Source of the DNA: Escherichia phage vB_EcoS_FFH_1
Length of the DNA: 64,000 nucleotides
Sequence record: KJ190157
Direction: 5' to 3' (one strand)
In this document: positions 4,735-60,283 of the stretch, one piece after another
Numbering within the stretch: position 1 is the first letter of the stretch
Layout: each line of letters begins with the position of its first letter
Notes under the pieces: model-generated
Database searches by the model: none
The model's input: the letters and a program-made list of their open reading frames with translations, nothing else
Told to the model about the DNA's origin: nothing
Translations under genes and position numbers: made by a program

Positions 4735-7068
4735 TTATAATTGGCAACCACCTGATGCGCATCCAGCAGCAGCTTCCTCTCCTGCACCTCCACCGTTTGC
4801 GGTGTTGAAGTTAGCATAATAGAAAGTTTTCCACCCGTACTTAACAGCAGTCATGAAATCACGAACTACTACTGGGCCAGGAATAATTTCATTCTCAAAC
4901 TTGGTGTAGTCGTAGTACATATTAGTACTGATAGACTGGCTGAAGAATTTCTGCATAGTTGCTACCCATTTGATCCACTCGATACGATCTACATCATAAG
5001 CCAATTTATAGCTCATTAACGTTTCCCAATCGGTTGCACCTGGAGCAATTGCAATTACTTTATTTACTGCACTACCCTTGATAGATACAATCTTACGTGG
5101 TGGTTCGATAGAGTTAGTAACACCTAACAGAACAGAAGAACTTTCTCCCGGCATCTGAGCAGTCAGAACAGAGTTACGCATACCATATTTCAGAATATCT
5201 GCACGTAGAGACTCCCAATCCATTTCTAGACCTATGGATACCAGTTCATCAACAGTTTTCTTGTACGTGTCGATTACCAAAATTCCCTTAGATGGTTTAG
5301 TACGATCAAACCACTCACATGCACCCTGTTCTTTAGCTAGGCGTACAGAGGCTTTATGCAGGAAGTAAGACAGTTTTTCAGCCTCACGGTGAATCCAGTT
5401 ACGTGCTTCAATACCTTCATAAGCCAGACCTTCTGCGGCCATTGCACCTGCTGCGTTCATTAGGCCAATACCAACATTACGACGTTTCTTAGCCGTATAT
5501 TCCATAGTTGGGAACGGATAATCCTGAATTTCGATAATTGTATCAATGAATTTCAGAAGGATGTAGCAAGTTTTTTCCCACTCAGCCAGAGATTCCATGC
5601 GTCCAAGTACAACACCACCTAAGTTACACAGAGATACTTCACCAATATCCTCCGGCTTCATTTGATCAAGCTGCTCTTTTGTCTTATACAGCTCTGTGAT
5701 ATGATGGAACGGGCGTGTAGGCTGAGTAATCTCAACACAAAGGTTTGTCATACGGATCGGATCAAGGAAATTACCATGACGATTAGACTCCCCAATGTGA
5801 TGAGCATACATACGTCCTGTTTCCATTCGGATACGTAGCCAAGTATCTAGGATTTCTTTTGCAGAGACTTTAGGAGCTGCTGGAACTGTTTTTCCTTTGT
5901 GGTCGATCTTTGTAAGAGATGCCACACGTTTCTCCGCTGCCACATAGATTTCTTCAAATTTAGCCTCGTCATCACTATAAAACGCTTCATGAACTTCTGG
6001 AGCATAGAAGTATGACATTAGCGTAATATCTTCATTTTTCAGATAACGTTTTAACAAAAGATTGTTGAAGCTCAGAGAATAATCCATCTTATCGATTTTA
6101 TTCTCATCTGTAGCACGTTGTTGCTTAACCTGCATCAATTGAATGATTTCAGGGTCAAAGTATGGATAAGACACTGTAGCAGAACCACCACGAGTTTGCT
6201 GAGTATTGGCCTTTACTGAGCGGTCAATGTGTCGATAATATGGCAGTTTTCCGGAATGCGGGAATGCCCCATTTCGCACCGGATCAGCAATTGATCTGCT
6301 CTCAAGATGATACCCGATTCCCGCTCTGGCTGCGACCATTTTGAAGACGATGTGCTCGGCGGTGTCGATTGAATCCAACGTGTCAGTGGAATCCACGAGG
6401 CAGCAACTAGCAAATCCACGGTCACTAGAGCGCAGACCAACCAGTGGCGGCGTAGGAACGTTGATTTTGTGGAGCGACATTGCGTTGTAGAGGTCGATTG
6501 CATCTAGAATTGTCCAGTTAGGTTGAGATAACATCGCCATTGCCATACCCATGTAGGCAAACTGCGGGGTTTCATAAATTTCACCAGTGGCTATGTTACG
6601 ACGGGAATACTTATCAAAGAACTGCTTCAGCCCACCACTAGTAAAAAGACGGTCACGATCATGGTCGATAACCTGATTCAGAGCTTCAAATTGCTCATCG
6701 GTAATCCATGCACTCATGTCTTCCCATGCACCTACGCTAACCATGTGGTCATGGAAGAAACGTAGAGAAGGTGGTTCGAAGGAGTCATAAAGGCGCTTAC
6801 GCATTTGCGCAAGACGTAATTCCTTTGCTGGCACATCGTATGCTGGGTTATCTTTGATAAGACTTTCAGCAGCTTTAATTAATGCGTCCATCAGAGTGTC
6901 GGAATCTACAACCCCTTTAGGTAGAGTTTTTTGAGCAGCCATAGTAATGGCTGACCAACTTACATCAACTGTTTTGCAACCATACTCTGCCCAACCATTG
7001 AGTTTTTCAGGAGCAAAGTCTTCTACAGTACCGTCACGTTTAATTACTTTTTCAATGCGATGGCTCAT
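4735..7068 (-). CDS. nrdA: class I ribonucleotide reductase alpha subunit (R1)
   Basis: ATP-cone-like N-terminus (VIKRDGTVEDF), NLCVEIT active-site loop, C-terminal Cys pair CASGGCQL; start placed at internal ATG 7068 (AAGGAAA SD); the longest ORF extends to 7173. Confidence 0.88.
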   Translation of the reverse strand: MSHRIEKVIKRDGTVEDFAPEKLNGWAEYGCKTVDVSWSAITMAAQKTLPKGVVDSDTLMDALIKAAESLIKDNPAYDVPAKELRLAQMRKRLYDSFEPPSLRFFHDHMVSVGAWEDMSAWITDEQFEALNQVIDHDRDRLFTSGGLKQFFDKYSRRNIATGEIYETPQFAYMGMAMAMLSQPNWTILDAIDLYNAMSLHKINVPTPPLVGLRSSDRGFASCCLVDSTDTLDSIDTAEHIVFKMVAARAGIGYHLESRSIADPVRNGAFPHSGKLPYYRHIDRSVKANTQQTRGGSATVSYPYFDPEIIQLMQVKQQRATDENKIDKMDYSLSFNNLLLKRYLKNEDITLMSYFYAPEVHEAFYSDDEAKFEEIYVAAEKRVASLTKIDHKGKTVPAAPKVSAKEILDTWLRIRMETGRMYAHHIGESNRHGNFLDPIRMTNLCVEITQPTRPFHHITELYKTKEQLDQMKPEDIGEVSLCNLGGVVLGRMESLAEWEKTCYILLKFIDTIIEIQDYPFPTMEYTAKKRRNVGIGLMNAAGAMAAEGLAYEGIEARNWIHREAEKLSYFLHKASVRLAKEQGACEWFDRTKPSKGILVIDTYKKTVDELVSIGLEMDWESLRADILKYGMRNSVLTAQMPGESSSVLLGVTNSIEPPRKIVSIKGSAVNKVIAIAPGATDWETLMSYKLAYDVDRIEWIKWVATMQKFFSQSISTNMYYDYTKFENEIIPGPVVVRDFMTAVKYGWKTFYYANFNTANGGGAGEEAAAGCASGGCQL

Positions 7069-7106
7069 TTGGCTTTCCTTTTTATAGTTATCAGGATTTA
7101 AGGAAT

Positions 7107-7135
7107 ATTCTACTTTATTATCGGTCATTAGGCAA
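7107..7135 (-). promoter_or_regulatory. putative promoter TTGCCT-N17-TAGAAT for nrdA
   Basis: minus-strand hexamers with 17-nt spacer in the 7069..7209 intergenic region. Confidence 0.4.
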
Positions 7136-7209
7136 ATAAAATTTTCTGATAGAAAAGGCCCGAGTATTTTCATACCCAGGCCTGTATATTACCAGTCTAG
7201 CTTTTTAGC

Positions 7210-7431
7210 TTATTCAATTACTTTAGCTCTAGCTACTTCTTTTAATAGAATATCTATAGAGGTGCTCAGCTCATTATAATTGAATGGTTTATTTGGATTT
7301 GAGGTTACAATTTTCCACGCTAGGGTTGTCTTAGGACTTTCTTCCCCTTCCTTACGTGTAATCATATTAGCAGCACTCAGTGAAGTACGATGTATTTTAG
7401 TTTTACGGCTCAGATGAACGACGTTTCCCAT
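7210..7431 (-). CDS. hypothetical protein (~73 aa), translationally coupled to phoH
   Basis: ATG one nucleotide after phoH stop (TAATATG); longer ORF-track version (to 7500) would overlap phoH by 68 nt. Confidence 0.4.
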   Translation of the reverse strand: MGNVVHLSRKTKIHRTSLSAANMITRKEGEESPKTTLAWKIVTSNPNKPFNYNELSTSIDILLKEVARAKVIE

Positions 7432-7432
7432 A

Positions 7433-8194
7433 TTACACCTTCCCCATGTCTTTAAAAATGTCATAGAATGCTTTAGACTCAACAGAACGAACGTTATCAA
7501 TCAATTCGATCATTGAGAAGGGGGCATTTTCGTATTTCTCATAGACTTCCATAAGGAGTGCTAGACCTGAGTCACCTTTAATGTCTTTCTGAGCTATATC
7601 TCCGCAGATAATTAAACGGCAGTCTTGTCCTACACGGGTTAGGAGACAAATCATTGCCTCAACGGAAATATTCTGAGCTTCATCGACAATTACATAGGAG
7701 TTGTTGAAAGTTCTGCCACGAGCATGTTCGATAGCCAAAAATTTAATTTTCTGACGTTCGACATATCCTTTATATGCATGATCGCCGATGGCCCATTTCA
7801 TACCATCAGCTATTGGCTCCAACCAAGGCTCTAGCTTTTCCGCTAGATCACCAGGAAGCATACCAAGAGACTTACCTAGAGGTTCATTAGGACGTACGAG
7901 AATCACTTGCTCAATATCTGAGTGAATGTCTACTAGTTCCTGAGCTGCAAGAACGGACGGAATAAAGGTTTTACCAGTACCTGGCTCACCGATACCCACA
8001 GTCACTGTGTTGTTCTTGATCATATTGATATATGATTTTTGCTCGCGGTTTTTACCTACTAGGGATTTAGCAACTGGGTTAGCGTAATCATTAGAAAAAT
8101 CAGCCTGAATTACGTTATTCTCATATTTGTTGCCACGCTTTCTTGAACCATTGCGGTTCTCTCTTTTTTGACGTGCTTTTCCCATAAATAACAC
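7433..8194 (-). CDS. phoH: PhoH-like ATPase
   Basis: Walker A GEPGTGKTF and Walker B VIVDEAQN; 253 aa. Confidence 0.85.
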   Translation of the reverse strand: MLFMGKARQKRENRNGSRKRGNKYENNVIQADFSNDYANPVAKSLVGKNREQKSYINMIKNNTVTVGIGEPGTGKTFIPSVLAAQELVDIHSDIEQVILVRPNEPLGKSLGMLPGDLAEKLEPWLEPIADGMKWAIGDHAYKGYVERQKIKFLAIEHARGRTFNNSYVIVDEAQNISVEAMICLLTRVGQDCRLIICGDIAQKDIKGDSGLALLMEVYEKYENAPFSMIELIDNVRSVESKAFYDIFKDMGKV

Positions 8195-8261
8195 TCCTAT
8201 AGTGTACTTCGCTTCTAACAGAGGATCAACAAAGAGATCTTGTTTATCAACTTACAAATAT

Positions 8262-8290
8262 ATTATAACAAGGTTTACAGCAAAAAGCAA
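8262..8290 (-). promoter_or_regulatory. sigma70-type promoter TTGCTT-N17-TATAAT for phoH operon
   Basis: minus-strand -35 at 8290-8285, -10 at 8267-8262. Confidence 0.55.
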
Positions 8291-8482
8291 GTATAATTTT
8301 AAATAAACCTATGATATTGCTTTTAAGTAAAAAATTTACTTGCTTTTAACGTGAGATGTACGATACTAGATAATCATTTTATATCGCGTGCACGAGTGCG
8401 TGATTATACAATTTTTAATAGAGGTTGGCAAATAAAATTTTTTGACTCAGATCATGTTACAGAACTTTATAGTAAAATATTA

Positions 8483-8511
8483 TTGACATCCGCCCTCGAA
8501 TGAGTTATAAT
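8483..8511 (+). promoter_or_regulatory. consensus sigma70 promoter TTGACA-N17-TATAAT for nrdD
   Basis: perfect -35 (8483-8488) and -10 (8506-8511) hexamers, 17-nt spacer, ~30 nt upstream of SD. Confidence 0.65.
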
Positions 8512-11095: not shown

Positions 11096-11258
11096 TCCAG
11101 AAAACATGCTTATTGAGCAATGGAACTTTGGTTATAATGCCGGTATAGCTACTTGTATTGCTAGATTGGATATGCTTATTAAGCAAGAAAAGGTACGCCC
11201 GGAGGAAGCAATTTTACTCCGAAATATTATCGAAGGATTTAAGCAAGGAATCGTATAG
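11064..11258 (+). CDS. hypothetical protein (64 aa)
   Basis: ORF in operon context. Confidence 0.35.
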   Translation: MDFLNQSLKSNPENMLIEQWNFGYNAGIATCIARLDMLIKQEKVRPEEAILLRNIIEGFKQGIV

Positions 11259-12082
11259 TGCGTAGACTAATTATTATTAGCGGTGCGGGTTTGAGTGTTG
11301 AAAGTGGTGTACGAGCTTTTCGTACTGATACTGCTAGTGGTAAAGCATTGTGGGATGATTATAATCTAGAAGAAGTATGTAATATTCATGCCTTTCGTGG
11401 TAATTTTTATCATAAAACCCATATGTTTTACAACAAGCGACGTGAAGAGTTAGAAACTGTTGAACCTAACCTTGCGCATCTTCGTATTGGTGAGTGGTAT
11501 AAGAAATATCCGGGTCAAGTAGTAAATTTGACTACTAACATTGATGACCTTATTGAGCGTGCTGGTGTTCCACATAATGATATTCTCCACATTCATGGAT
11601 ACTTAAAGGAGGTTGTTGTAGCTGATAGCTACAATAGTAGTAATAAACGAATTATTGATGTTGGGTATAACTCTATTGACCCAGAGGATTATAAATGGGT
11701 TAAACCTAACGTTATCTTCTTTGGTGAGCATGCTCCAGCATATACAGAAATGTACAATGTTTTTGATGGTATTACCAGTCAAGATATGATCATTGTGGTT
11801 GGTTGCTCTAACCAAGTAATTAACTTCTACTGGGAATTATTTCCTGTTCTTAATTTGACTGCTGCCAAATTAATGGTAGTTAACTACTACGATAGTGCCC
11901 TAGCGGCAGAACCAGGCTATCAAGGTATGACTCGTAGTGAGATGTACCAGTTGGAAGATCGTGGTATTCCTTACTGGAGTAAAGGTGCGGTAGATGCTTT
12001 TAGTGACCCTGATTTTATTGCTCGTGTGGAAGCCCATTTAGAGGGTAGACCTTACGTGCCAGGGAAACAAATATGTCCATAA
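11258..12082 (+). CDS. Sir2-family (sirtuin-like) NAD-dependent enzyme, lacking the Zn-ribbon cysteines
   Basis: Sirtuin motifs in order: GAGLSVESGVRAFR, TTNIDDL, catalytic LHIHGYL, PNVIFFGEHAP, VVGCSNQV; no CxxC...CxxC; GTG start overlapping upstream stop. Confidence 0.75.
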   Translation: MRRLIIISGAGLSVESGVRAFRTDTASGKALWDDYNLEEVCNIHAFRGNFYHKTHMFYNKRREELETVEPNLAHLRIGEWYKKYPGQVVNLTTNIDDLIERAGVPHNDILHIHGYLKEVVVADSYNSSNKRIIDVGYNSIDPEDYKWVKPNVIFFGEHAPAYTEMYNVFDGITSQDMIIVVGCSNQVINFYWELFPVLNLTAAKLMVVNYYDSALAAEPGYQGMTRSEMYQLEDRGIPYWSKGAVDAFSDPDFIARVEAHLEGRPYVPGKQICP

Positions 12083-12255
12083 TTAAATCTGTGTATACAC
12101 ACCCTGATGATATATTTGTATGGGCGGACGGTAGTTGGTGCTATCGCTGTGAACTGTGGGAAATGGACTATAAATCCGATGACTATGGTGTCATATATGT
12201 TGATACGGCTGAGTATGATACGTTCTTAGAAAGGAACAAAAATGGAAATAAGTAA
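12073..12255 (+). CDS. hypothetical protein (60 aa)
   Basis: short ORF overlapping both neighbours; no motif. Confidence 0.3.
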   Translation: MSIIKSVYTHPDDIFVWADGSWCYRCELWEMDYKSDDYGVIYVDTAEYDTFLERNKNGNK

Positions 12256-12748
12256 TACTCCAATTATTTTTCTAGACATTGATGGGGTGCTCAATTCGAG
12301 CATCTCCCACCATCATGCACCTGATGATGAAAAGATTTTCTTTGGAAGTGACTGGGTTTTCAAACCGCTTCTCAAGGCTTTTCAGGACTTTATTCGTCCT
12401 TCTCCGATAATGATTGTTGGGGTATCCTCATGGTTCTCTGTCAGGAATGAGATGGAGAACGTTCAGATTATGACCGGATTAGGTCTTATCGATCGTTTTC
12501 TTGGTACAACGGATTTTACTGGTGGTGGGCTATCTAGGGGTAATTCTGTTCTTCGCTTCGTTGAAAAGCATAAGCTCAAACATTGGTGTGTACTGGATGA
12601 CGCTGGTGCTATGATGTATCAGTATCCAACGGTTATAGTCAATGGTAGAACTGGAATAAATCTTCAAGATTTAAAAGCTGTTAGCTATATGCTAGAATTT
12701 AGCCCAGATCTTGAAATGTGTAAATCCTTACAACAATTTAAGGTGTAA
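12242..12748 (+). CDS. HAD-superfamily hydrolase-like protein (putative phosphatase/nucleotidase)
   Basis: HAD motif I FLDIDGVLN near N-terminus and motif IV-like WCVLDD; 168 aa. Confidence 0.55.
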   Translation: MEISNTPIIFLDIDGVLNSSISHHHAPDDEKIFFGSDWVFKPLLKAFQDFIRPSPIMIVGVSSWFSVRNEMENVQIMTGLGLIDRFLGTTDFTGGGLSRGNSVLRFVEKHKLKHWCVLDDAGAMMYQYPTVIVNGRTGINLQDLKAVSYMLEFSPDLEMCKSLQQFKV

Positions 12749-12750
12749 AT

Positions 12751-13179
12751 ATGTTCAATAATGTATTCTCTAAAGAAGCTAACCCAATTTTGGTTAACTT
12801 TTGGCGTACTCTCCCAGCTAGCCTGTATAATGAGGCTATTAACTCTTTGAAAATATGGTGTGAGAATAACGAAATCTCCTTTGCTTTTAAAGATGATATT
12901 GATGAGGCTCCCTGTATTGTTTTAATTGTGCAGGTAGAGGAGGGTCTTGAAGAGATTGTGGGCTGGAAAGAGTTAGACGAAATGGGCTTAGTTTTTGCGT
13001 TAAATTATAAACTGTTTATGCCTGCTAAGCATCGCCTTGTTGTTAACTATAAAACTAGTGAATCTCCTGGTTTTCAGGTTAATGAACGTTATGGTTGGTC
13101 TTACTCACCGGAAGAAGTAAATGAGGGGATTCAGAAACTTCGACGTTTCGGGTATATGATCCCGGGTTTAACTGCTTAA
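12751..13179 (+). CDS. hypothetical protein, paralog A of tandem pair
   Basis: 142 aa; shares conserved blocks (SF.F...PCI, MGL..ALN..LF.P, L.R.G..PGL) with the next ORF. Confidence 0.5.
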   Translation: MFNNVFSKEANPILVNFWRTLPASLYNEAINSLKIWCENNEISFAFKDDIDEAPCIVLIVQVEEGLEEIVGWKELDEMGLVFALNYKLFMPAKHRLVVNYKTSESPGFQVNERYGWSYSPEEVNEGIQKLRRFGYMIPGLTA

Positions 13180-13188
13180 GGAGGCAGG

Positions 13189-13581
13189 ATGGAACAAGTA
13201 TATTGGCGTCAGATTGACCCTAGTTTGGTGAAACGTGCGGAGAAGCTGCTACAACGTTGGTTGGGGGTAAGGCAAGCCTCCTTCTCTTTTCCGGAGCAGC
13301 AAACGGATGATCCATGCATTGGCGTTTTCCTGTCTGGATATGCCGGGGAATGGGAGATGGATTGGAATGAATTGTCCGCTATGGGTTTAATTGTTGCCCT
13401 AAATTTCTCTTTGTTCCATCCACGTGGTTTGGCCATATGTCGTGTGCCTGATGACGGTTGTTCGCCCCATCTTTTACAGGTGGAAGATGATATTTGGGAG
13501 TACACTCCAGATATTCTCAAAGAAGCTAAAGAACAATTAAACCGTGTTGGGATTTATGTTCCAGGCCTAAATGATGAATGA
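13189..13581 (+). CDS. hypothetical protein, paralog B of tandem pair
   Basis: 130 aa; AGGAGG SD; homologous to 12751..13179; followed by intrinsic terminator. Confidence 0.5.
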   Translation: MEQVYWRQIDPSLVKRAEKLLQRWLGVRQASFSFPEQQTDDPCIGVFLSGYAGEWEMDWNELSAMGLIVALNFSLFHPRGLAICRVPDDGCSPHLLQVEDDIWEYTPDILKEAKEQLNRVGIYVPGLNDE

Positions 13582-13605
13582 TTTTTACTAGCTGAACTCT
13601 GATTA

Positions 13606-13628
13606 CCGAGTCAAAATGACTCGGTTTT
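13606..13628 (+). terminator. intrinsic terminator after paralog B
   Basis: CCGAGTCA-AAA-TGACTCGG 8-bp stem followed by TTTT. Confidence 0.65.
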
Positions 13629-13672
13629 ATCCGTACTCAAGACCAATGATAGCACCATCCGGAAAATTTTAC

Positions 13673-13701
13673 TTGCAGGATGCCCAAAATCTTGATATAA
13701 T
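13673..13701 (+). promoter_or_regulatory. strong sigma70-type promoter TTGCAG-N17-TATAAT with TGn extended -10, no ORF downstream
   Basis: -35 13673-13678, TGA 13693-13695, -10 13696-13701. Confidence 0.5.
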
Positions 13702-14193
13702 ATTTATATTGAGAGACATTAGTAAAAATTGATTTTGCTAATTTTTCTTGTTTACAATCCGCGATACGGAACAGTTAGGCTGCCCCATTAAGGGTTGTTT
13801 TAACTATTACTAGTGTTTATATTGCATTAGTTAATCTTCAATTAAGTGATCTGTGTACCCTGAATTCGGAAAGGTAAATCCAAACCGTGCATATTTAGCT
13901 CGTTATATAGGCAGAGCTTTATATGGGGGTGCGAACGAAAAGAGCAGCGAATGGCGGCACGTACAGTAGTCACCTACCAATAGGATAGTGAGGACAAATA
14001 GAATCGGCTTAGCGGCCAATGACCTAGGTTCTATTCTGTATATGAGCGAAGAGAGCACAGCACTGAGATATGATAACTTATTCATATTGTTTGATGATAA
14101 TTGATGTTTACGTAAATAGTAGTAATAGTTGTTCTATTCTTTCTGAATAGTCCTAAAGAAAAGATTTCTATTAATCAACACAGGAGTATTGTT

Positions 14194-16983
14194 GTGTTTT
14201 CTATCCTCCAAGGTCACGCCGGTTTTTCTCGTGATTTAGCAACAGGTATTTGGCGAGAAATCAAAGCGGAAGATTATACCTTTGCCAAACGATTCTCGAA
14301 AGAGCATCCAGAAGGTAAACCAGCTTCTATGCCCTTCAAATTTGATGTAATAGAAGAGCACGACCCACAAAGCCTTGCCGAAATGTTACCACTTATGAGA
14401 CGTTTAACGTCTGACCCTCATATCGTTGCGGTACGAGGTCGATGTCTTGCACCTAAAAATAATGTGCGACGTAAGAAAGGTAACTTTAATGTATCCAACC
14501 CTAGCAATATTATTGCTATGGACGTGGATGGTATCCTAGATACCGGTGGGTATGACAAGTTTAATCTTGTAGGTATGGCTCGCCACATTATTAAGATGTT
14601 GAATAGTATTAGTGAGGATATGTTTCCTCTTGATGCAGGGTTTATTGCTCATGCATCGTCTTCGGCTGGCCTAAAACCAGGTATCCGAATGCACTTAATG
14701 CTAGAATCTAACGTCAAGGTAACTCAAGGTCAGTTAAAGTTCTTATTTACGTCTATCAATGATAGTAGTAAGCAAAAATTCGGTTTTGATATTGCCGACT
14801 TAGCTTATTACTCATCTGTCCAGCTTCACTATTTTGCCGACCCTTTATTTAGCGATGGTATTGTTGATCCGTTTAAAGCGGAGAGTAAGCCACGTCTGGT
14901 ATATGTTAAAGGTTCGAAGGTAAATTTGCCCAATAATCTGGTTGACTATGAAACAACTAGAGGGGAATTTAAGGAAGAGTTTTATTCTTTACTTGATCAA
15001 ATTAAAGGCAAAAAGATTGCTTCTGATAAAGTAGAAGAAACCATCAGCGAATTGGAAGAAGCCGAGGATGGGGTGTACTTGCGTATTATCCCCAAACTCT
15101 ACCATAGAGCATTAGAGGATGGTGTTGATTTCGCATGGCTAGAACGCGAGATTAAACCCGCTTTATCTGAATATATTGCAACTAAAGATAACAGTCGTAA
15201 TATTCAAGATTACTTTAATAACGGTCGTAAGCAGGCTCTCAAAGCGTTTGTTAATAATTCTAAACGTGAGATCCCATTAAATCTGAAGGGTGTTCCACTC
15301 AAGAAATTAGAAGTGGATTCTCCACCAGAAGTTCCGTACCTGAAGATTAACATTGTGCCTCCAAAAGGCCATATAACATTTGTTAAGGCAAGTCTTGGTA
15401 CTGGTAAGACTACGGCAGTAACTAAATGGCTGGACGCAGGTGTTCTTCCTGGCAACTTTTTAGCAGTTACAAATACTAGAGCACTGGTATCTTCAAACGC
15501 TAAGAAATTTAGCGCAGGACAATATGATAAGTCTGTAGATATGCTCAACTTTAAACGTGGAGCTATTGATCGTATGTCTACAACTATCCACTCTTTGCAT
15601 AAGTTCAAAAGTTTTATTGGTCAAATAGATACCATTTTTATTGATGAATGTGATGCTGTAATGAATGATCTATTATTCGCACCTGTTGTTAAGCAACGTC
15701 GCGAATGTATTCAAGTTCTACGTGACATCCTCATGACAGCTAAAACTGTAATTCTATCAGATGGTGATATTAGTGCCGAAACTATTGAAGCATATGGTTC
15801 TCTAATTGATTTTGATAAACCAGTAGCATTTTATAATCATCACCGTAAGATGCTGTCAAAAGCTCATGCTTATGAGTTCCCGGATGAATCCAGTATTTGG
15901 GTTGCACTTCAGACCTCTCTAGAGATGGGTGAGAAATCTATCCTAGTATCTGATTGTGGGCCGGATGAACTGAATGAGAAGGGCATGGCATTGCGTCGTA
16001 ATACGGGTGCGCTAGTTAAGGAAATCCACTCAAACTCCACTTCAGATGTGGATATTAGACGTATTCTGGATTATACGACTAATGAGTTAATTGATCAACA
16101 AATTGACTGCTTATTATGTAGTCCATCCGTAACGAGTGGCGTTGATTTCAACTATTTTGATAACGTATTTGTTATTACTAGAACTAGTAATCAAGCGCCA
16201 AACATGCGTTTCCAAGCAATTAGGCGCGACCGTGGTGCTCAGAATATCTATTATTTTATTGATAAATCTACGAGTGGATTCTCCGCAGGTTCTGAACAAT
16301 ATAATATTGATGAGGGTTGGCTGGAGTTAGCACAGCAATTATACGCACGTCGCAGAGAGCTAGAATCTAGGAACTATACTAGTACTTTACGTTATTACTT
16401 GCTTGATCAGGGTGCAACTATTGATATTTTCAGTGAAAGTTGGGGAACTATTGAAGGTGCTGGTAAAGAGTACACAGAAGAGCGAATTAAAGCTATTCTA
16501 CATTCAACTCCTGATTATTGTGCTCCACGTCATGCGGATGCGTATGAAGCTAAACTACTTCTTGTCCGCTATTATCATCTTGAGTCTATTAAAGATGTAA
16601 CAGTTGAGCATGTTGAACAATATATCAAAGATAAACCGAATGATCGAGCTGCATTCTTCCATAAGATGCACGAGATGTTCTGGGAAGATATTAAGAAGTG
16701 TTCAAATGTGACCATTAAACCATTCATAGAGGCTCTGAAAGGTAAGAAGAAAGACTTCTTCCTTAAAACAGGTCAGAGTGCTAACCCAAAATATGCTAGA
16801 ATGTATCTTGGTATGATGGGTATTGGTAAGGATATGAACACTGAAAATATTGTAGACTGGTACAGAACCTATTGTAAAATCGAGTGTATGCCAATCCCAT
16901 ATAAGTTTATGACTGATGAGGAGAAACATATGCATGATGAAGCAATGGCAGAGCTAGGTGCTAGAAATGACAGTGAAGAATAA
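14194..16983 (+). CDS. large P-loop NTPase (929 aa), putative replication initiator / origin-binding helicase-like protein
   Basis: GTG start with AGGAG SD; central Walker A LGTGKTT and Walker B FIDECDAV; ~380-aa N-terminal domain of unknown fold. Confidence 0.55.
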   Translation: MFSILQGHAGFSRDLATGIWREIKAEDYTFAKRFSKEHPEGKPASMPFKFDVIEEHDPQSLAEMLPLMRRLTSDPHIVAVRGRCLAPKNNVRRKKGNFNVSNPSNIIAMDVDGILDTGGYDKFNLVGMARHIIKMLNSISEDMFPLDAGFIAHASSSAGLKPGIRMHLMLESNVKVTQGQLKFLFTSINDSSKQKFGFDIADLAYYSSVQLHYFADPLFSDGIVDPFKAESKPRLVYVKGSKVNLPNNLVDYETTRGEFKEEFYSLLDQIKGKKIASDKVEETISELEEAEDGVYLRIIPKLYHRALEDGVDFAWLEREIKPALSEYIATKDNSRNIQDYFNNGRKQALKAFVNNSKREIPLNLKGVPLKKLEVDSPPEVPYLKINIVPPKGHITFVKASLGTGKTTAVTKWLDAGVLPGNFLAVTNTRALVSSNAKKFSAGQYDKSVDMLNFKRGAIDRMSTTIHSLHKFKSFIGQIDTIFIDECDAVMNDLLFAPVVKQRRECIQVLRDILMTAKTVILSDGDISAETIEAYGSLIDFDKPVAFYNHHRKMLSKAHAYEFPDESSIWVALQTSLEMGEKSILVSDCGPDELNEKGMALRRNTGALVKEIHSNSTSDVDIRRILDYTTNELIDQQIDCLLCSPSVTSGVDFNYFDNVFVITRTSNQAPNMRFQAIRRDRGAQNIYYFIDKSTSGFSAGSEQYNIDEGWLELAQQLYARRRELESRNYTSTLRYYLLDQGATIDIFSESWGTIEGAGKEYTEERIKAILHSTPDYCAPRHADAYEAKLLLVRYYHLESIKDVTVEHVEQYIKDKPNDRAAFFHKMHEMFWEDIKKCSNVTIKPFIEALKGKKKDFFLKTGQSANPKYARMYLGMMGIGKDMNTENIVDWYRTYCKIECMPIPYKFMTDEEKHMHDEAMAELGARNDSEE

Positions 16984-17208: not shown

Positions 17209-17237
17209 TTGCATAGTTCAAAAAATTTCTGTATAAT
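17209..17237 (+). promoter_or_regulatory. early promoter nearly identical to T5 PN25 as remembered
   Basis: AAAATTTATTTGCAT...TTCTGTATAATAGATTCATAAATTTGAGAGAGGAGTT; -10 17232-17237. Confidence 0.7.
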
Positions 17238-17268
17238 AGATTCATAAATTTGAGAGAGGAGTTTAAAT

Positions 17269-29135: not shown

Positions 29136-29147
29136 ATGATGTATAAT
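29119..29147 (+). promoter_or_regulatory. early promoter (TTGGCA-N17-TATAAT + ACATAAATTTGAGAGAG box), first of tandem pair
   Basis: -10 29142-29147; conserved downstream box. Confidence 0.55.
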
Positions 29148-29218
29148 ATATACATAAATTTGAGAGAGAAAGTTTCGGATTGATAAGAAAGTCCAAAGCA
29201 GAAAAATAAAAATTTTAG

Positions 29219-33724: not shown

Positions 33725-34599
33725 TGAGTAAATCCTGGGGAAAATTTATTGAAGAAGAGGAAGCTGAAATGGCTTCCCGTCGTAACCTAATGATTGTCGA
33801 TGGAACTAACTTAGGCTTTCGCTTCAAACATAACAATAGTAAAAAACCATTTGCCTCAAGTTATGTTTCCACTATTCAGTCTCTAGCAAAATCTTATTCT
33901 GCTAGAACTACAATAGTTTTAGGGGATAAAGGGAAGTCTGCATTTCGCCTAGAACATCTTCCAGAGTATAAGGGGAATCGAGATGAGAAATACTCTCAGC
34001 GTACGGAAGAGGAGAAAGCGTTAGATGAGCAGTTCTTCGAGTATTTGAAAGATGCTTTCGAACTATGTGAAACTACATTCCCAACCTTCACTATTCGTGG
34101 CGTAGAAGCAGATGATATGGCAGCTTATATTGTTAAGCTGATTGGGCATCTATATGATCATGTTTGGCTAATTTCTACCGATGGTGACTGGGATACTTTA
34201 TTAACTGATAAAGTTTCTCGCTTCTCTTTCACAACACGTCGTGAATATCATCTTCGTGATATGTATGAGCATCATAATGTTGACGATGTAGAGCAGTTCA
34301 TCTCCCTGAAAGCAATTATGGGTGATCTAGGGGATAATATCCGAGGTGTTGAAGGTATTGGGGCAAAACGCGGATATAATATTATTCGTGAATTTGGTAA
34401 CGTTCTGGATATTATTGATCAGCTTCCACTGCCTGGAAAACAGAAATATATACAGAATTTAAATGCTTCGGAAGAATTGCTTTATCGAAACCTAATTCTG
34501 GTTGATTTACCTACCTACTGTGTGGATGCTATTGCTGCTGTAGGTCAAGATGTATTAGATAAGTTTACAAAAGATATTTTGGAGATTGCAGAACAATGA
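33724..34599 (+). CDS. D15: 5'-3' exonuclease / flap endonuclease
   Basis: 291 aa; FEN-family acidic clusters (VDGTNL, EADD, DGDWD) and H3TH-like GIGAKRG; size matches T5 exonuclease from memory. Confidence 0.85.
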   Translation: MSKSWGKFIEEEEAEMASRRNLMIVDGTNLGFRFKHNNSKKPFASSYVSTIQSLAKSYSARTTIVLGDKGKSAFRLEHLPEYKGNRDEKYSQRTEEEKALDEQFFEYLKDAFELCETTFPTFTIRGVEADDMAAYIVKLIGHLYDHVWLISTDGDWDTLLTDKVSRFSFTTRREYHLRDMYEHHNVDDVEQFISLKAIMGDLGDNIRGVEGIGAKRGYNIIREFGNVLDIIDQLPLPGKQKYIQNLNASEELLYRNLILVDLPTYCVDAIAAVGQDVLDKFTKDILEIAEQ

Positions 34600-35042
34600 T
34601 TAAAATTAAACTAACCCATCCAGATTGTATGCCTAAGATTGGTTCCGAAAATGCTGCAGGTATGGATCTGCGAGCATTCTTTGGTACTAACCCTGCTGCA
34701 GATTTACGTGCTATTGCACCAGGCAAATCCTTAATGATTGACACCGGTGTCGCGGTGGAAATTCCGCGAGGTTGGTTCGGTTTGGTAGTTCCACGTAGTT
34801 CTTTAGGTAAACGCCATCTGATGATTGCAAATACCGCAGGTGTGATCGACTCAGATTATCGTGGGACTATTAAGATGAACCTGTTTAACTACGGTTCTGA
34901 AATTCAAACTCTGGAAAATTTTGAAAGACTTTGTCAGTTGGTAGTAGTACCACACTACTCAACACATAATTTTGAAATTGTTGATGAACTAGGGGAAACT
35001 GATCGTGGTGAAGGCGGGTTTGGAAGCTCCGGAAGCAGATAA
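34596..35042 (+). CDS. dut: dUTPase
   Basis: 148 aa; dUTPase motifs AAGMDLRA, PRSSLG, GVIDSDYRG, C-terminal GGFGSSG. Confidence 0.9.
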   Translation: MIKIKLTHPDCMPKIGSENAAGMDLRAFFGTNPAADLRAIAPGKSLMIDTGVAVEIPRGWFGLVVPRSSLGKRHLMIANTAGVIDSDYRGTIKMNLFNYGSEIQTLENFERLCQLVVVPHYSTHNFEIVDELGETDRGEGGFGSSGSR

Positions 35043-58852: not shown

Positions 58853-58966
58853 AGTGTTCTCCTCAACTGTATGAATATAGTATACATAATCGTATCGAAT
58901 TTGTAAAGGGGATTTTAAAATACAGGAATGGGATACCAACTGAGTAGTATCCCATCCTATACTTAT

Positions 58967-60283
58967 TTATTTACCACGGGAAATAGAATAAATTCCATAG
59001 CGGAGCGCATCACAAAGGTGAGAGTTAGCATCATGACGTGGTTTTTCACGTGATAATTTCTCTTCACCTTCTTGGAAATCCCACTTATAGTTCTGCAGTG
59101 CATGGATTAAGGAGGAACATGAGGCATCCACAATAATCTTACCCTGCTGGAATAGCGCTTGTAGGCATGCTAGACCATCCAGGACAGATTTTTTAGCTGG
59201 AGCTGATGCAATTTCATGCTCATAAGCTAAATCCTGGCGGAACTGAGCAGCGGCAGAGTCAACAAAAATACGATCAACTTTATAACGATCTATACAGTGC
59301 TGAATATAAGCAGCATGCTGAGCTGTGGTTTTCTCCGCCTGCTGGTACTCTTCTAATACATAGTAAGTATCCGTATCATAGTGATATTTAATAGTAAGAA
59401 CTGCTGTAGGATCACGATAACCAACGTCAATACCAAGCAATGTTTCGAATGCTTCATCATCTTTAAAGAAGTGACGCATACCTTTGAGGTCTTTAACATG
59501 ATCAATAGCATTAAAGGTATCAAAGATCTGGCCTTCGAATACAGAGAAGTCAGCCTCGTATTCCTGGCGGAAATAGTTTTTACTAACCGTACGACGTGCT
59601 TCCTCAATGTCATTCAAATCAGCACGCGGGTTATCACGATATGTACCATGAATAGACACCCAATTAGGCAACGTATCATCAAATCCGTAGGCGTAAAACT
59701 CTTTAAACCAGTTACCTCCACGAGGGGTGGAAATAAATAGAGCCTTAGAATTAGGTTTATCTAGGGTAGGACGCAGCTGAACCCTGAAGGCATCACCACC
59801 CACATCGGAAATTGCCGCCTCGTCAAAGATGATAAAATCATATGAACGTCCAACCGCGGAGTCAGCCTGAGCCGCGGAAGCTAGTTTAAATAGAGAACCA
59901 TTAGCTAACTCAATCTCTTTATCTTTAGCGTTTTCACGTTCGGTTTGTAGGCCGTACTTCTTAATAAGACCACGAATCTGAGACCATCCGATATTAGCTA
60001 GTGAATAGTTAGGGGCAACTACTAGCACCTTCACATTAGGTTCCAGCAATTTTAGGAACCCAAGTGTATACGCTATAAAAGATTTACCTACACGGCGTGA
60101 TACACACGCCGTTACAAAACGATGTCTAGGGTCTTCTAGGGCATTGATAATTGCTATTTGAGGGCCATTAGGCGTGATACCTTCTTGCGCTAGTATTCCG
60201 GAAACTGGTAAACGAAAGAAACGCTTATCTATTCCGAAATCAATAACATCTACTGTGTTAACATAGGGTCTTGATACTTCCAT
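58967..60283 (-). CDS. terminase large subunit
   Basis: 438 aa; Walker A SRRVGKSF, Walker B FIIFDEAA, C-terminal nuclease-like acidic residues. Confidence 0.9.
   Translation of the reverse strand: MEVSRPYVNTVDVIDFGIDKRFFRLPVSGILAQEGITPNGPQIAIINALEDPRHRFVTACVSRRVGKSFIAYTLGFLKLLEPNVKVLVVAPNYSLANIGWSQIRGLIKKYGLQTERENAKDKEIELANGSLFKLASAAQADSAVGRSYDFIIFDEAAISDVGGDAFRVQLRPTLDKPNSKALFISTPRGGNWFKEFYAYGFDDTLPNWVSIHGTYRDNPRADLNDIEEARRTVSKNYFRQEYEADFSVFEGQIFDTFNAIDHVKDLKGMRHFFKDDEAFETLLGIDVGYRDPTAVLTIKYHYDTDTYYVLEEYQQAEKTTAQHAAYIQHCIDRYKVDRIFVDSAAAQFRQDLAYEHEIASAPAKKSVLDGLACLQALFQQGKIIVDASCSSLIHALQNYKWDFQEGEEKLSREKPRHDANSHLCDALRYGIYSISRGK

Follow-up and report, generated by a model that had tools for sequence, protein, structure and literature searches.

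The D2 locus and its early promoter

The DNA analysed here is a 64,000-nucleotide (nt) stretch of Escherichia phage vB_EcoS_FFH_1 (record KJ190157; hereafter the window), a T5-like phage (Tequintavirus). The element in question is the gap at positions 13582-14193, which lies between a homologue of T5.107 (13189-13581) and D2 (T5.108, 14194-16983, + strand), and which corresponds to positions 58928-59544 of the 121,750 of T5, that is, 48.4-48.9% of that genome. A first reading made from the letters alone (the sequence-only reading) had offered three options for this gap: a replication origin, a small RNA or a long structured leader. The gap contains a leader of ~490 nt, from an early promoter to the D2 start codon, and the existence of a conserved structured leader is in our judgement very probable. 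Region 13500-14300 was matched by 444 phage records, the best matches (~98% identical) being the Salmonella phages Kenya-K20 and L6jm, with T5 at 96.7%. T5 is a founding model phage for which, to our knowledge, no replication origin has been defined at the sequence level, nor has the control of the initiator-like helicase D2.

All the elements listed by the sequence-only reading were found in the region, with slightly shifted coordinates. The gap begins with the rho-independent terminator of the upstream operon (homologues of T5.105-107), which had been placed at 13606-13628 and maps to 13605-13629 on the + strand. It is a 9-base-pair (bp) perfect inverted repeat with arms ACCGAGTCA (13605-13613) and TGACTCGGT (13617-13625), a 3-nt loop and TTTT after it, and it is annotated in two T5 GenBank records; a consensus scan overlooked it solely because greedy stem extension consumes one T. 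The terminator is kept in Sugarlandvirus (IME260) and My1, with compensatory changes in the stem.

The near-consensus extended -10 promoter described at 13673-13701 (+ strand) is the early sigma-70 promoter T5P32, as judged from its sequence, its conservation and its label in two T5 GenBank records. It consists of a -35 box TTGCAG (13673-13678), a 17-nt spacer, TG at 13693-13694 and a perfect -10 box TATAAT (13696-13701), the extended -10 reading TGATATAAT; the scan skipped it because its -35 box matches at 3/6 positions only. The promoter is conserved in five genus-level groups, including Sugarlandvirus and My1, and transcription is predicted to start near 13706-13708. Terminator and early promoter are thus already known from T5 records, and the structured leader is the new part. 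The initial-transcribed motif TATAAT-N-TTGAGA is common to this promoter and two others in the window (3 matches against 0.46 expected), located at 17232-17255 and 29142-29165, the former of which presumably corresponds in sequence to the classic T5 promoter PN25 (TATAATAGATTCATAAATTTGAGA).

Two further observations concern the promoter. Between the -10 box and the first hairpin (13702-13712) this phage is short of one ATTGA pentamer and reads ATTTATATTGAGAG, where the other T5-like leaders in a 37-sequence alignment read ATTTATATTGAATTGAGAG, except for one leader with ATC for the starting ATT and another with CGAGAG for TGAGAG; Sugarlandvirus, My1 and the locus L042 differ. The first hairpin is thereby 5 nt closer to the start site. 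In the Klebsiella phage vB_Kpn_3 (Sugarlandvirus; L015, 1501-1550), 50 nt identical to window positions 13663-13712 were found at a different locus, preceded by helicase gene fragments and followed by a hypothetical gene and D11, which suggests a promoter cassette common to both loci.

Directly downstream of the leader, as the sequence-only reading stated, is an open reading frame (ORF) of 929 amino acids (aa) at 14194-16983. It is D2, a bipolar superfamily 2 (SF2) helicase annotated as 'replication origin binding protein', an assignment based on T5 annotation, Pfam and PDB. D2 matches Pfam Herpes_ori_bp over aa 389-533 only, and UL9-type origin-binding proteins were its sole matches in the PDB, over the same stretch. 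The protein has been characterised as a bipolar helicase by authors who proposed a role in initiation and who cite electron microscopy (EM) evidence for internal origins (PMC3632103). Residues 1-390 had no Pfam match, a PHROG match that was the phage's own, and two partial homologues in a protein search; a single-sequence AlphaFold model of this part was unusable, with a predicted local distance difference test (pLDDT) score of 39.7. On the other side of the gap, the products of the operon that ends at the terminator (11258-13581) include two DUF7415 proteins that are paralogues, a protein of the Sir2 family and a HAD domain of the RNA-repair type known as 'Swiss Army Knife'; identity among phages is low in this operon (70-93%).

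A conserved structured leader

In an alignment of thirteen loci that included their flanks, identity to the window was taken segment by segment. The upstream gene is 70-93% identical to the window, and the first 300 nt of D2 are 80-85% identical in most phages and 97-98% in the closest relatives, T5 and DT571/2. The first ~100 transcribed nt (13702-13800) are 96-100% identical in every aligned T5-like phage, unpaired bases included. The central ~300 nt are bimodal, with 86-99% identity in one group of phages, here named type A (the window, T5, DT571/2, oselot, rokbiter and rutana), and 43-45% in another, type B (FGS009, Gostya9, DaisyDussoix, AKM_HA2021_32, NR01, Kenya-K41 and 8sent1748). Both types occur within Tequintavirus and within Epseptimavirus, so the types cut across genera. 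Since the motif GAGAAGUG and the loop AGUUGCCAC of type B are also found in Sugarlandvirus, My1 and L042, the divergent version is type A, the type of the window and T5.

The 37-sequence alignment was scored against a consensus structure obtained with RNAalifold from 10 representatives. The consensus contains 111 pairs, with 89.4% of cells paired as compared with 38-49% when partners were slid, and 54 pairs change on both sides as compared with 18-26; as the sole decisive evidence these counts were rejected, given that coding controls show the same twofold excess. The case for structure therefore rests on individual helices and on a shuffle test, in which alignment columns were shuffled within classes of gap pattern and conservation and then refolded. 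For the 10 representative leaders the observed energy was -108.9, against -54.4 ± 6.2 for shuffled alignments (z = -8.8), and the leader minus type A gave z = -6.4, while three D2 coding controls from the same phages gave z = -1.9, -2.8 and -1.0. In type A alone, double changes that compensate each other were found at 13 pairs, some of them in the rod and some in the inner core described below, and there is hardly any pair-breaking variation; and types A and B, at 43-45% identity in the core, predict the same architecture. The structure was assigned to the + strand because of the promoter and the lower absolute energy of that strand; a count of G-U versus A-C pairs is biased by the way in which the structure was derived.

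Conserved structure is demonstrated for Tequintavirus, Epseptimavirus, Sugarlandvirus, My1 and L042, and suggested for the rest of the family. Among the three options originally offered, the long structured leader is thus the one supported, by covarying helices, by shuffle energies set against coding controls, by the absence of a terminator and by a hairpin at the ribosome-binding site (RBS), and its fold is conserved in related genomes across T5-like phages, Sugarlandvirus, My1 and L042. A separate small RNA found no such backing, as no 3' end signal was found in the leader.

From 5' to 3' the leader consists of two hairpins (H1 and H2), a ~330-nt domain closed by a rod around a branched core, a hairpin (H16), an A-rich spacer and the RBS hairpin (H17), all on the + strand. 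H1 (13704-13757), of about 20 bp, has 19 pairs with 95% of cells paired; 7 of the 19 show changes on both sides across genera, and in IME260, My1 and L042 the hairpin is re-formed from different sequence. H2 (13754-13798; 16 pairs, 97% of cells paired) holds the nearly invariant GAUACGGAACAGUUAGGCUGCCCCAU (13763-13788), which is single-copy per genome in 31 IMG/VR contigs and always located at the D2 locus. The fold given for H2 is tentative, since alternative pairings are predicted: GGAACAG could pair with UUGUUCU near 14128-14134 (an approximate position, from alignment columns 478-484), and the H2 region folds differently in the consensus of type A only. The invariance of H2 may be due to the existence of these alternative pairings.

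The rod comprises a 5' strand at 13801-13856 (H3-H4) and a 3' strand at 14055-14131 (H4-H3), which carries the branch hairpin H15; their pairing is predicted from the inverted repeats I1 and I2 and from covariation. In the type-A consensus it is 45 bp long, in three segments. At the rod base, 6 of the 11 pairs of H3 are changed on both sides, as are 6 of the 9 pairs of H4. The stem of H15 (14067-14088) covaries between types, being AUAUGA/UCAUAU in type A, AGUGG/CCACU in type B and AAGGG/CCCUU in My1. The AT-rich tracts at 13797-13850 and 14066-14147, which flank the core and would be candidates for the unwinding element of an iteron-type origin, are the two strands of the RNA rod.

The central multi-branch core of type A (13857-14054) is defined by its predicted fold and by compensatory changes, and it accounts for the GC-richer island that had been noted in AT-rich DNA at approximately 13920-14020; measured here, GC content is 43% over 13900-14099 against 32-36% on either side. 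In the type-A consensus the core includes a hairpin at 13890-13925, a helix pairing 13957-13966 with 14036-14047 and a hairpin at 13969-13995, with double changes at 13897/13918, 13898/13917, 13957/14047, 13963/14039 and 13970/13994. The H13/H14 hairpin (13997-14035; 8 pairs, 99% of cells paired) has the invariant motif CUUAGCGG (14008-14015) at its apex; 7 of the 8 pairs of H13 are changed on both sides, with up to five pair types at one position. By motif and local-fold check, CUUAGCGG was also found in a hairpin at the loci L045, L047 and L056, with a similar element in L063 and L079. This check was used in place of a hairpin model of the element, which was dropped after MAFFT misregistered the stems.

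H16 (14134-14150; 6 pairs, 92% of cells paired) has the form CUAUUC-UUUCU-GAAUAG, with stems CUAUC/GAUAG in Sugarlandvirus and CUUUCC/GGAAAG in L042. It is not a terminator, because no T run follows it. No terminator-like site was found on the + strand in 13702-14193, which makes the leader contiguous with D2. In the RBS hairpin H17 (14177-14198), positions 14177-14183 pair with 14192-14198 (AACACAG/UUGUGUU), with 7 of 7 pairs formed in the window and 95% of cells paired over the alignment, one pair varying between C-G, U-G and U-A. The Shine-Dalgarno sequence AGGAG occupies 14182-14186 and the GUG start codon (14194-14196) lies within the 3' strand of the hairpin.

The leader was always found directly upstream of D2, with one copy per genome, in the 31 IMG/VR contigs. 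ORF-free gaps behind a promoter precede the D2 homologues of IME260 (598 nt) and My1 (590 nt), and such gaps are also present in the Vibrio phages Quinn (~700 nt) and JSF10 (~1100 nt) and in other lineages; the L052 lineage has just a 368-nt AT-rich gap beside a divergent gene. The lack of a plausible + strand ORF before the GTG at 14194 was also confirmed, as none of at least 60 aa was found from 13582 on. Four small ORFs of 38-60 aa are each intact in just 11-17 of the 37 aligned leaders, all in close type-A relatives, and the longest + strand ATG ORF in type B leaders has 3 aa. No ORF is conserved in the leader, which does not fit a small protein-coding gene. Some genome records annotate two or three "hypothetical proteins" over the leader or extend D2 upstream into it; the small "hypothetical proteins" annotated there in several genomes are spurious.

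The covariance-model search proposed with the sequence-only reading placed the leader in no Rfam 15 family. At the gathering threshold there was no match in the 64-kb window; at E up to 10 the matches in 13400-14400 were at chance level, and nothing relevant was found in 11 related loci. No Rfam riboswitch class matched the leader at either the gathering or the permissive threshold, and a search for tRNA and tmRNA found nothing.

Several T5-like phages carry insertions in this region. In 51 phage records an 89-nt extra module is present between H1 and H2 (after window position 13741; for instance L005, 877-973, and also L009 and L012), flanked by the 8-nt direct repeat TTTTTCTT and single-copy per record. 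It occurs in type A (DT571/2) and type B (NR01, Gostya9) leaders alike, as a small inserted element or an optional expansion segment would. In Salmonella phage oselot (L004, 856-886) a 9-nt unit is repeated three times in tandem, reading TAATTTTGC/ATTTTGCTA, with copies within the H1 loop and 3' strand that are annotated as a repeat_region in the record. Genes are inserted in the spacer between terminator and promoter in 8sent1748 (L014, 316-768) and Kenya-K41 (L013, 777-1292), one insert being a free-standing HNH endonuclease gene and the other a 171-aa ORF; both phages also differ in promoter-proximal sequence. Homing could be directed at the adjacent 5' domain, which is nearly invariant.

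Core type and D2 type are inherited together

Thirty-four loci were classed by core type, and the 7.8 kb around them was scanned for differences fixed between types A and B. There were none upstream of 13700 and 121 in 13700-14099, followed by 2-12 per 200 nt across the first 1.1 kb of D2 and none after 15500. A second peak, of 28 fixed differences, was located at 15300-15499 (+ strand), where divergence was 0.31 between types as compared with 0.05-0.08 within them. This hypervariable D2 segment (aa ~369-436) flanks Walker A, and its type matches that of the leader core. At the protein level, D2 of types A and B differs by 8-11% over aa 1-368, by 28-31% over aa 369-436 and by 0-2% beyond.

Core and D2 block were matched in all 34 loci, despite patches of the other type lying between them in L024 (14700-14900), L048 (14166-14300), L041 (15100-15300) and L037 (14194-14300). 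Chimeric queries joining a core to a D2 block were also run by megablast against 50,697 phage records. With the A core and A block, 276 records were matched at 536 places and 260 hold both parts; with the B core and B block the figures were 165 records, 319 places and 154 holding both. The mixed queries gave 428 records and 428 places for the A core with the B block, none holding both parts, and 425 records and 427 places for the B core with the A block, at most 2 holding both. At the sensitivity of megablast, at most 2 of about 416 records holding both blocks are therefore of mixed type. The core type is co-inherited with the N-terminal 436 aa of D2, which is the pattern that co-adaptation of the leader core and the D2 N-terminal half would be expected to produce.

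Possible functions of the leader

The reading we favour, at about even chances, is that the leader controls D2 expression in cis and would be recognised by D2 in a type-specific manner. The leader has its own promoter, is contiguous with D2 and has conserved secondary structure, as is found in cis-acting leaders. Transcription by host RNA polymerase would begin at the conserved early promoter, just past the upstream terminator, and would produce a ~490-nt non-coding leader running without a terminator into D2. This leader could set D2 translation in cis and possibly also the stability or processing of the message: the RBS hairpin H17 could limit initiation of D2 translation, and RNase III could plausibly act on the long rod. 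The N-terminal half of D2 would bind the core type-specifically and thereby exert feedback on its own synthesis, a feedback that would resemble other replication and RNA-enzyme leaders. The same transcript might also help D2 to start replication at the leader.

Several results weigh against this proposal or against the structure on which it is built. The RNAalifold-then-count procedure applied to D2 coding alignments also gave ~88% of cells paired and a twofold excess of double changes, and single-sequence folding energy was rejected as uninformative (z = -3.4 for the leader, with a D2 coding control at -4.3). In the shuffle test the reverse complement does equally well, so the test itself leaves the strand unproven. 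H17 is kept in T5-like phages and Sugarlandvirus and not in My1 or L042, and the 300-nt branched core is far larger than known protein operators. With distant groups of 3-4 sequences each, the shuffle test was no better than in coding controls, and a covariance model of the 5' domain (R1) matched T5-like phages alone among the loci searched, with no match in L045-L047, the Vibrio phages or others; the leaders of Sugarlandvirus, My1 and L042, being in its training alignment, were left out of this search. The coupling of core and D2 type could also be plain linkage, as 1.2 kb separates the two blocks, the genomes are not independent and recombination between highly divergent blocks is poor.

The origin option was examined through repeats and strand composition. 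The decamer reported as duplicated at approximately 14027 and 14128, GTTCTATTCT, occurs exactly twice, at 14028-14037 and 14131-14140; its copies form one strand each of two helices, the 3' strand in H13 and the 5' strand in H16, and the repeat is not a conserved feature, because the first copy is replaced in type B. Direct repeats in 13550-14250 are two-copy families only, with no iteron array. Cumulative GC skew, a weak origin test in phages since it follows gene direction, has no turn at 13.6-14.2 kb and is positive from ~8 kb to 34 kb of the window; its sign changes, at ~7000-8500 and ~34000-35000, probably reflect changes in gene direction. A 9-mer, GTGCGAACG, which we take to be the reverse complement of the herpes simplex virus (HSV) UL9 box I core, is present at 13929-13937, its sole copy in the 64 kb; it is found in all type-A leaders and is absent from type B and other genera. 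A ColE1-type antisense promoter was not found in the leader, where the only minus-strand promoter-like site (13726-13697, a 9/12 match) is directed away from it and is no better than chance would give. An origin of the duplex iteron type is therefore unsupported, and of the origin claim this part is not borne out, for lack of arrays or a skew turn and with a decamer specific to type A; the part concerning recognition by an initiator is left room by the coupling of core and D2. An RNA- or single-strand-based initiation site recognised by D2 is possible and would fit that coupling.

These observations make it extremely improbable that the gap is a classical duplex origin with repeated initiator-binding sites, in which the decamer and the AT-rich DNA would be functional and the RNA structure incidental. 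The two exact decamer copies, the AT-rich flanks, the single box-I-like 9-mer at 13929 and the adjoining initiator-type gene favour it, but to the lack of arrays and of a skew signal must be added the absence of the first decamer copy and the 9-mer from type B and other genera, the place of the decamer copies in RNA helices, and compensatory changes that favour single-strand pairing over duplex recognition. An origin primed by transcription is less doubtful, though still unlikely. Here the structured transcript would stay hybridised or be recognised co-transcriptionally, binding of the type-specific core by the D2 N-terminal half would bring the helicase onto the displaced strand, and leading-strand synthesis would be primed by the RNA or by an end produced from it by processing, the transcript doubling as D2 mRNA as at T4 ori(uvsY). 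The element adjoins the gene of the only UL9-like initiator-type helicase, near the middle of the T5 genome (48.4-48.9%), has a strong conserved promoter and AT-rich tracts (~13797-13850 and 14066-14147) on both sides of the core, and its core type is tied to the D2 N-terminal type, as expected of a recognition site and its initiator. The study of D2 adds a proposed initiation role and EM evidence for internal origins (PMC3632103). Against this, the skew does not turn at the site and the promoter of an antisense regulator of the ColE1 kind was not found, and expression control explains the RBS hairpin and the contiguity with D2 more simply. ColE1 RNA II is a structured primer of ~550 nt, which speaks for such an origin, whereas the phage R-loop origins of T4 and T7 are not known to need an elaborate RNA fold. 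A specific version, which we consider decidedly unlikely, is that the leader is the RNA half of the T5 origin, a folded cis transcript with an exchangeable core read by the D2 N-terminal half; if so, RNA structure would specify origin choice in a classical double-stranded DNA phage, and co-infecting T5-like phages would fall into something like incompatibility groups by their matched RNA and initiator types.

Two other alternatives start from the RNA itself. Cutting of the rod, for example by RNase III, could free a stable ~250-300-nt core acting in trans against a host or phage target, D2 translation being secondary. A long-range rod around a compact branched domain does resemble rRNA-type processing stems, the size and complexity are beyond usual cis-regulators, the apical motif is invariant, and the 89-nt insert of 51 records and the oselot tandem repeat are optional modules, similar to expansion segments; however, of all parts of the leader the core has the lowest sequence conservation and it is exchanged along with D2, which suggests a partner within the phage and not a conserved target in the host, and the element was never found away from D2, so that this alternative appears improbable. 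It is more improbable still that the leader is mainly a transcription or decay element formed by H1 and H2, either a put-like read-through RNA for the D2 operon or a 5' stabiliser, with the other parts of lesser importance. Two stem-loops directly after a strong promoter, identity of 96-100% that extends to unpaired bases, and a TTGAGA motif common to other early promoters argue for it, but it leaves the conserved fold of the 330-nt domain and the D2 coupling unexplained, there is no terminator inside the leader to overcome and no similarity to an Rfam family. A polymerase or stability role of H1 and H2, to which we give equally little credence, would be compatible with the other readings and does not exclude them.

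With D2 control in cis as the favoured reading, an unannotated gap becomes a concrete object, a ~490-nt RNA with defined helices, invariant loops and two natural versions, each paired with a version of the D2 N-terminal half. It would add to the known RNAs a large phage family outside Rfam 15, carried by more than 400 sequenced T5-like genomes. A literature search found no paper describing the leader, the tables of PMC10690425 lying beyond its coverage. That survey covers more than 10,000 candidate viral structured RNAs (PMC10690425), and the leader may be among the unnamed ones.

Among known systems, the GOLLD and ROOL RNAs are similarly several hundred nt long, multi-branched, phage-borne and without an assigned function, but the leader is smaller, has no Rfam match even at E up to 10, and precedes one specific gene rather than lying near tRNA clusters. 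By analogy, H1 and H2 recall the put RNA of HK022, two highly conserved, cis-acting stem-loops right after an early promoter; put, however, is ~70 nt long with nothing like the 330-nt domain, and the D2 leader has no terminator downstream. With HSV oriS/oriL and UL9 the locus shares a UL9 helicase core in D2, a candidate site beside a replication gene and, in type A, one box-I-like 9-mer. In contrast to UL9, D2 has no detectable homologue of the C-terminal DNA-binding domain, the 9-mer is not conserved and the leader has no palindromic box arrangement.

Overall, the leader would work most like the long autoregulatory leaders, or like the ColE1 RNA II and T4 R-loop systems, judging by analogy. 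ColE1 RNA II is likewise a promoter-driven transcript of ~500 nt with conserved folding, although the D2 leader is without a promoter like that of antisense RNA I; the T4 origins ori(uvsY) and ori(34) lie beside replication genes, and the transcript of the former doubles as mRNA of a replication/recombination gene (uvsY), but they need a DNA unwinding element and not an RNA fold. The autoregulatory leaders, such as the Escherichia coli rne 5' untranslated region (~360 nt), pnp with its RNase III hairpin and the T4 gene 32 and 43 operators, have no sequence or Rfam relationship to the D2 leader, which is far larger than the T4 operators and in which conservation is far higher over the first 100 nt than in the putative operator core. 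They are nevertheless, like it, long, structured and contiguous with the gene, with the RBS in or beside a hairpin and a long duplex that is a possible RNase III site; the regulated product is a nucleic-acid enzyme, and the variant of the leader travels with the variant of the protein.

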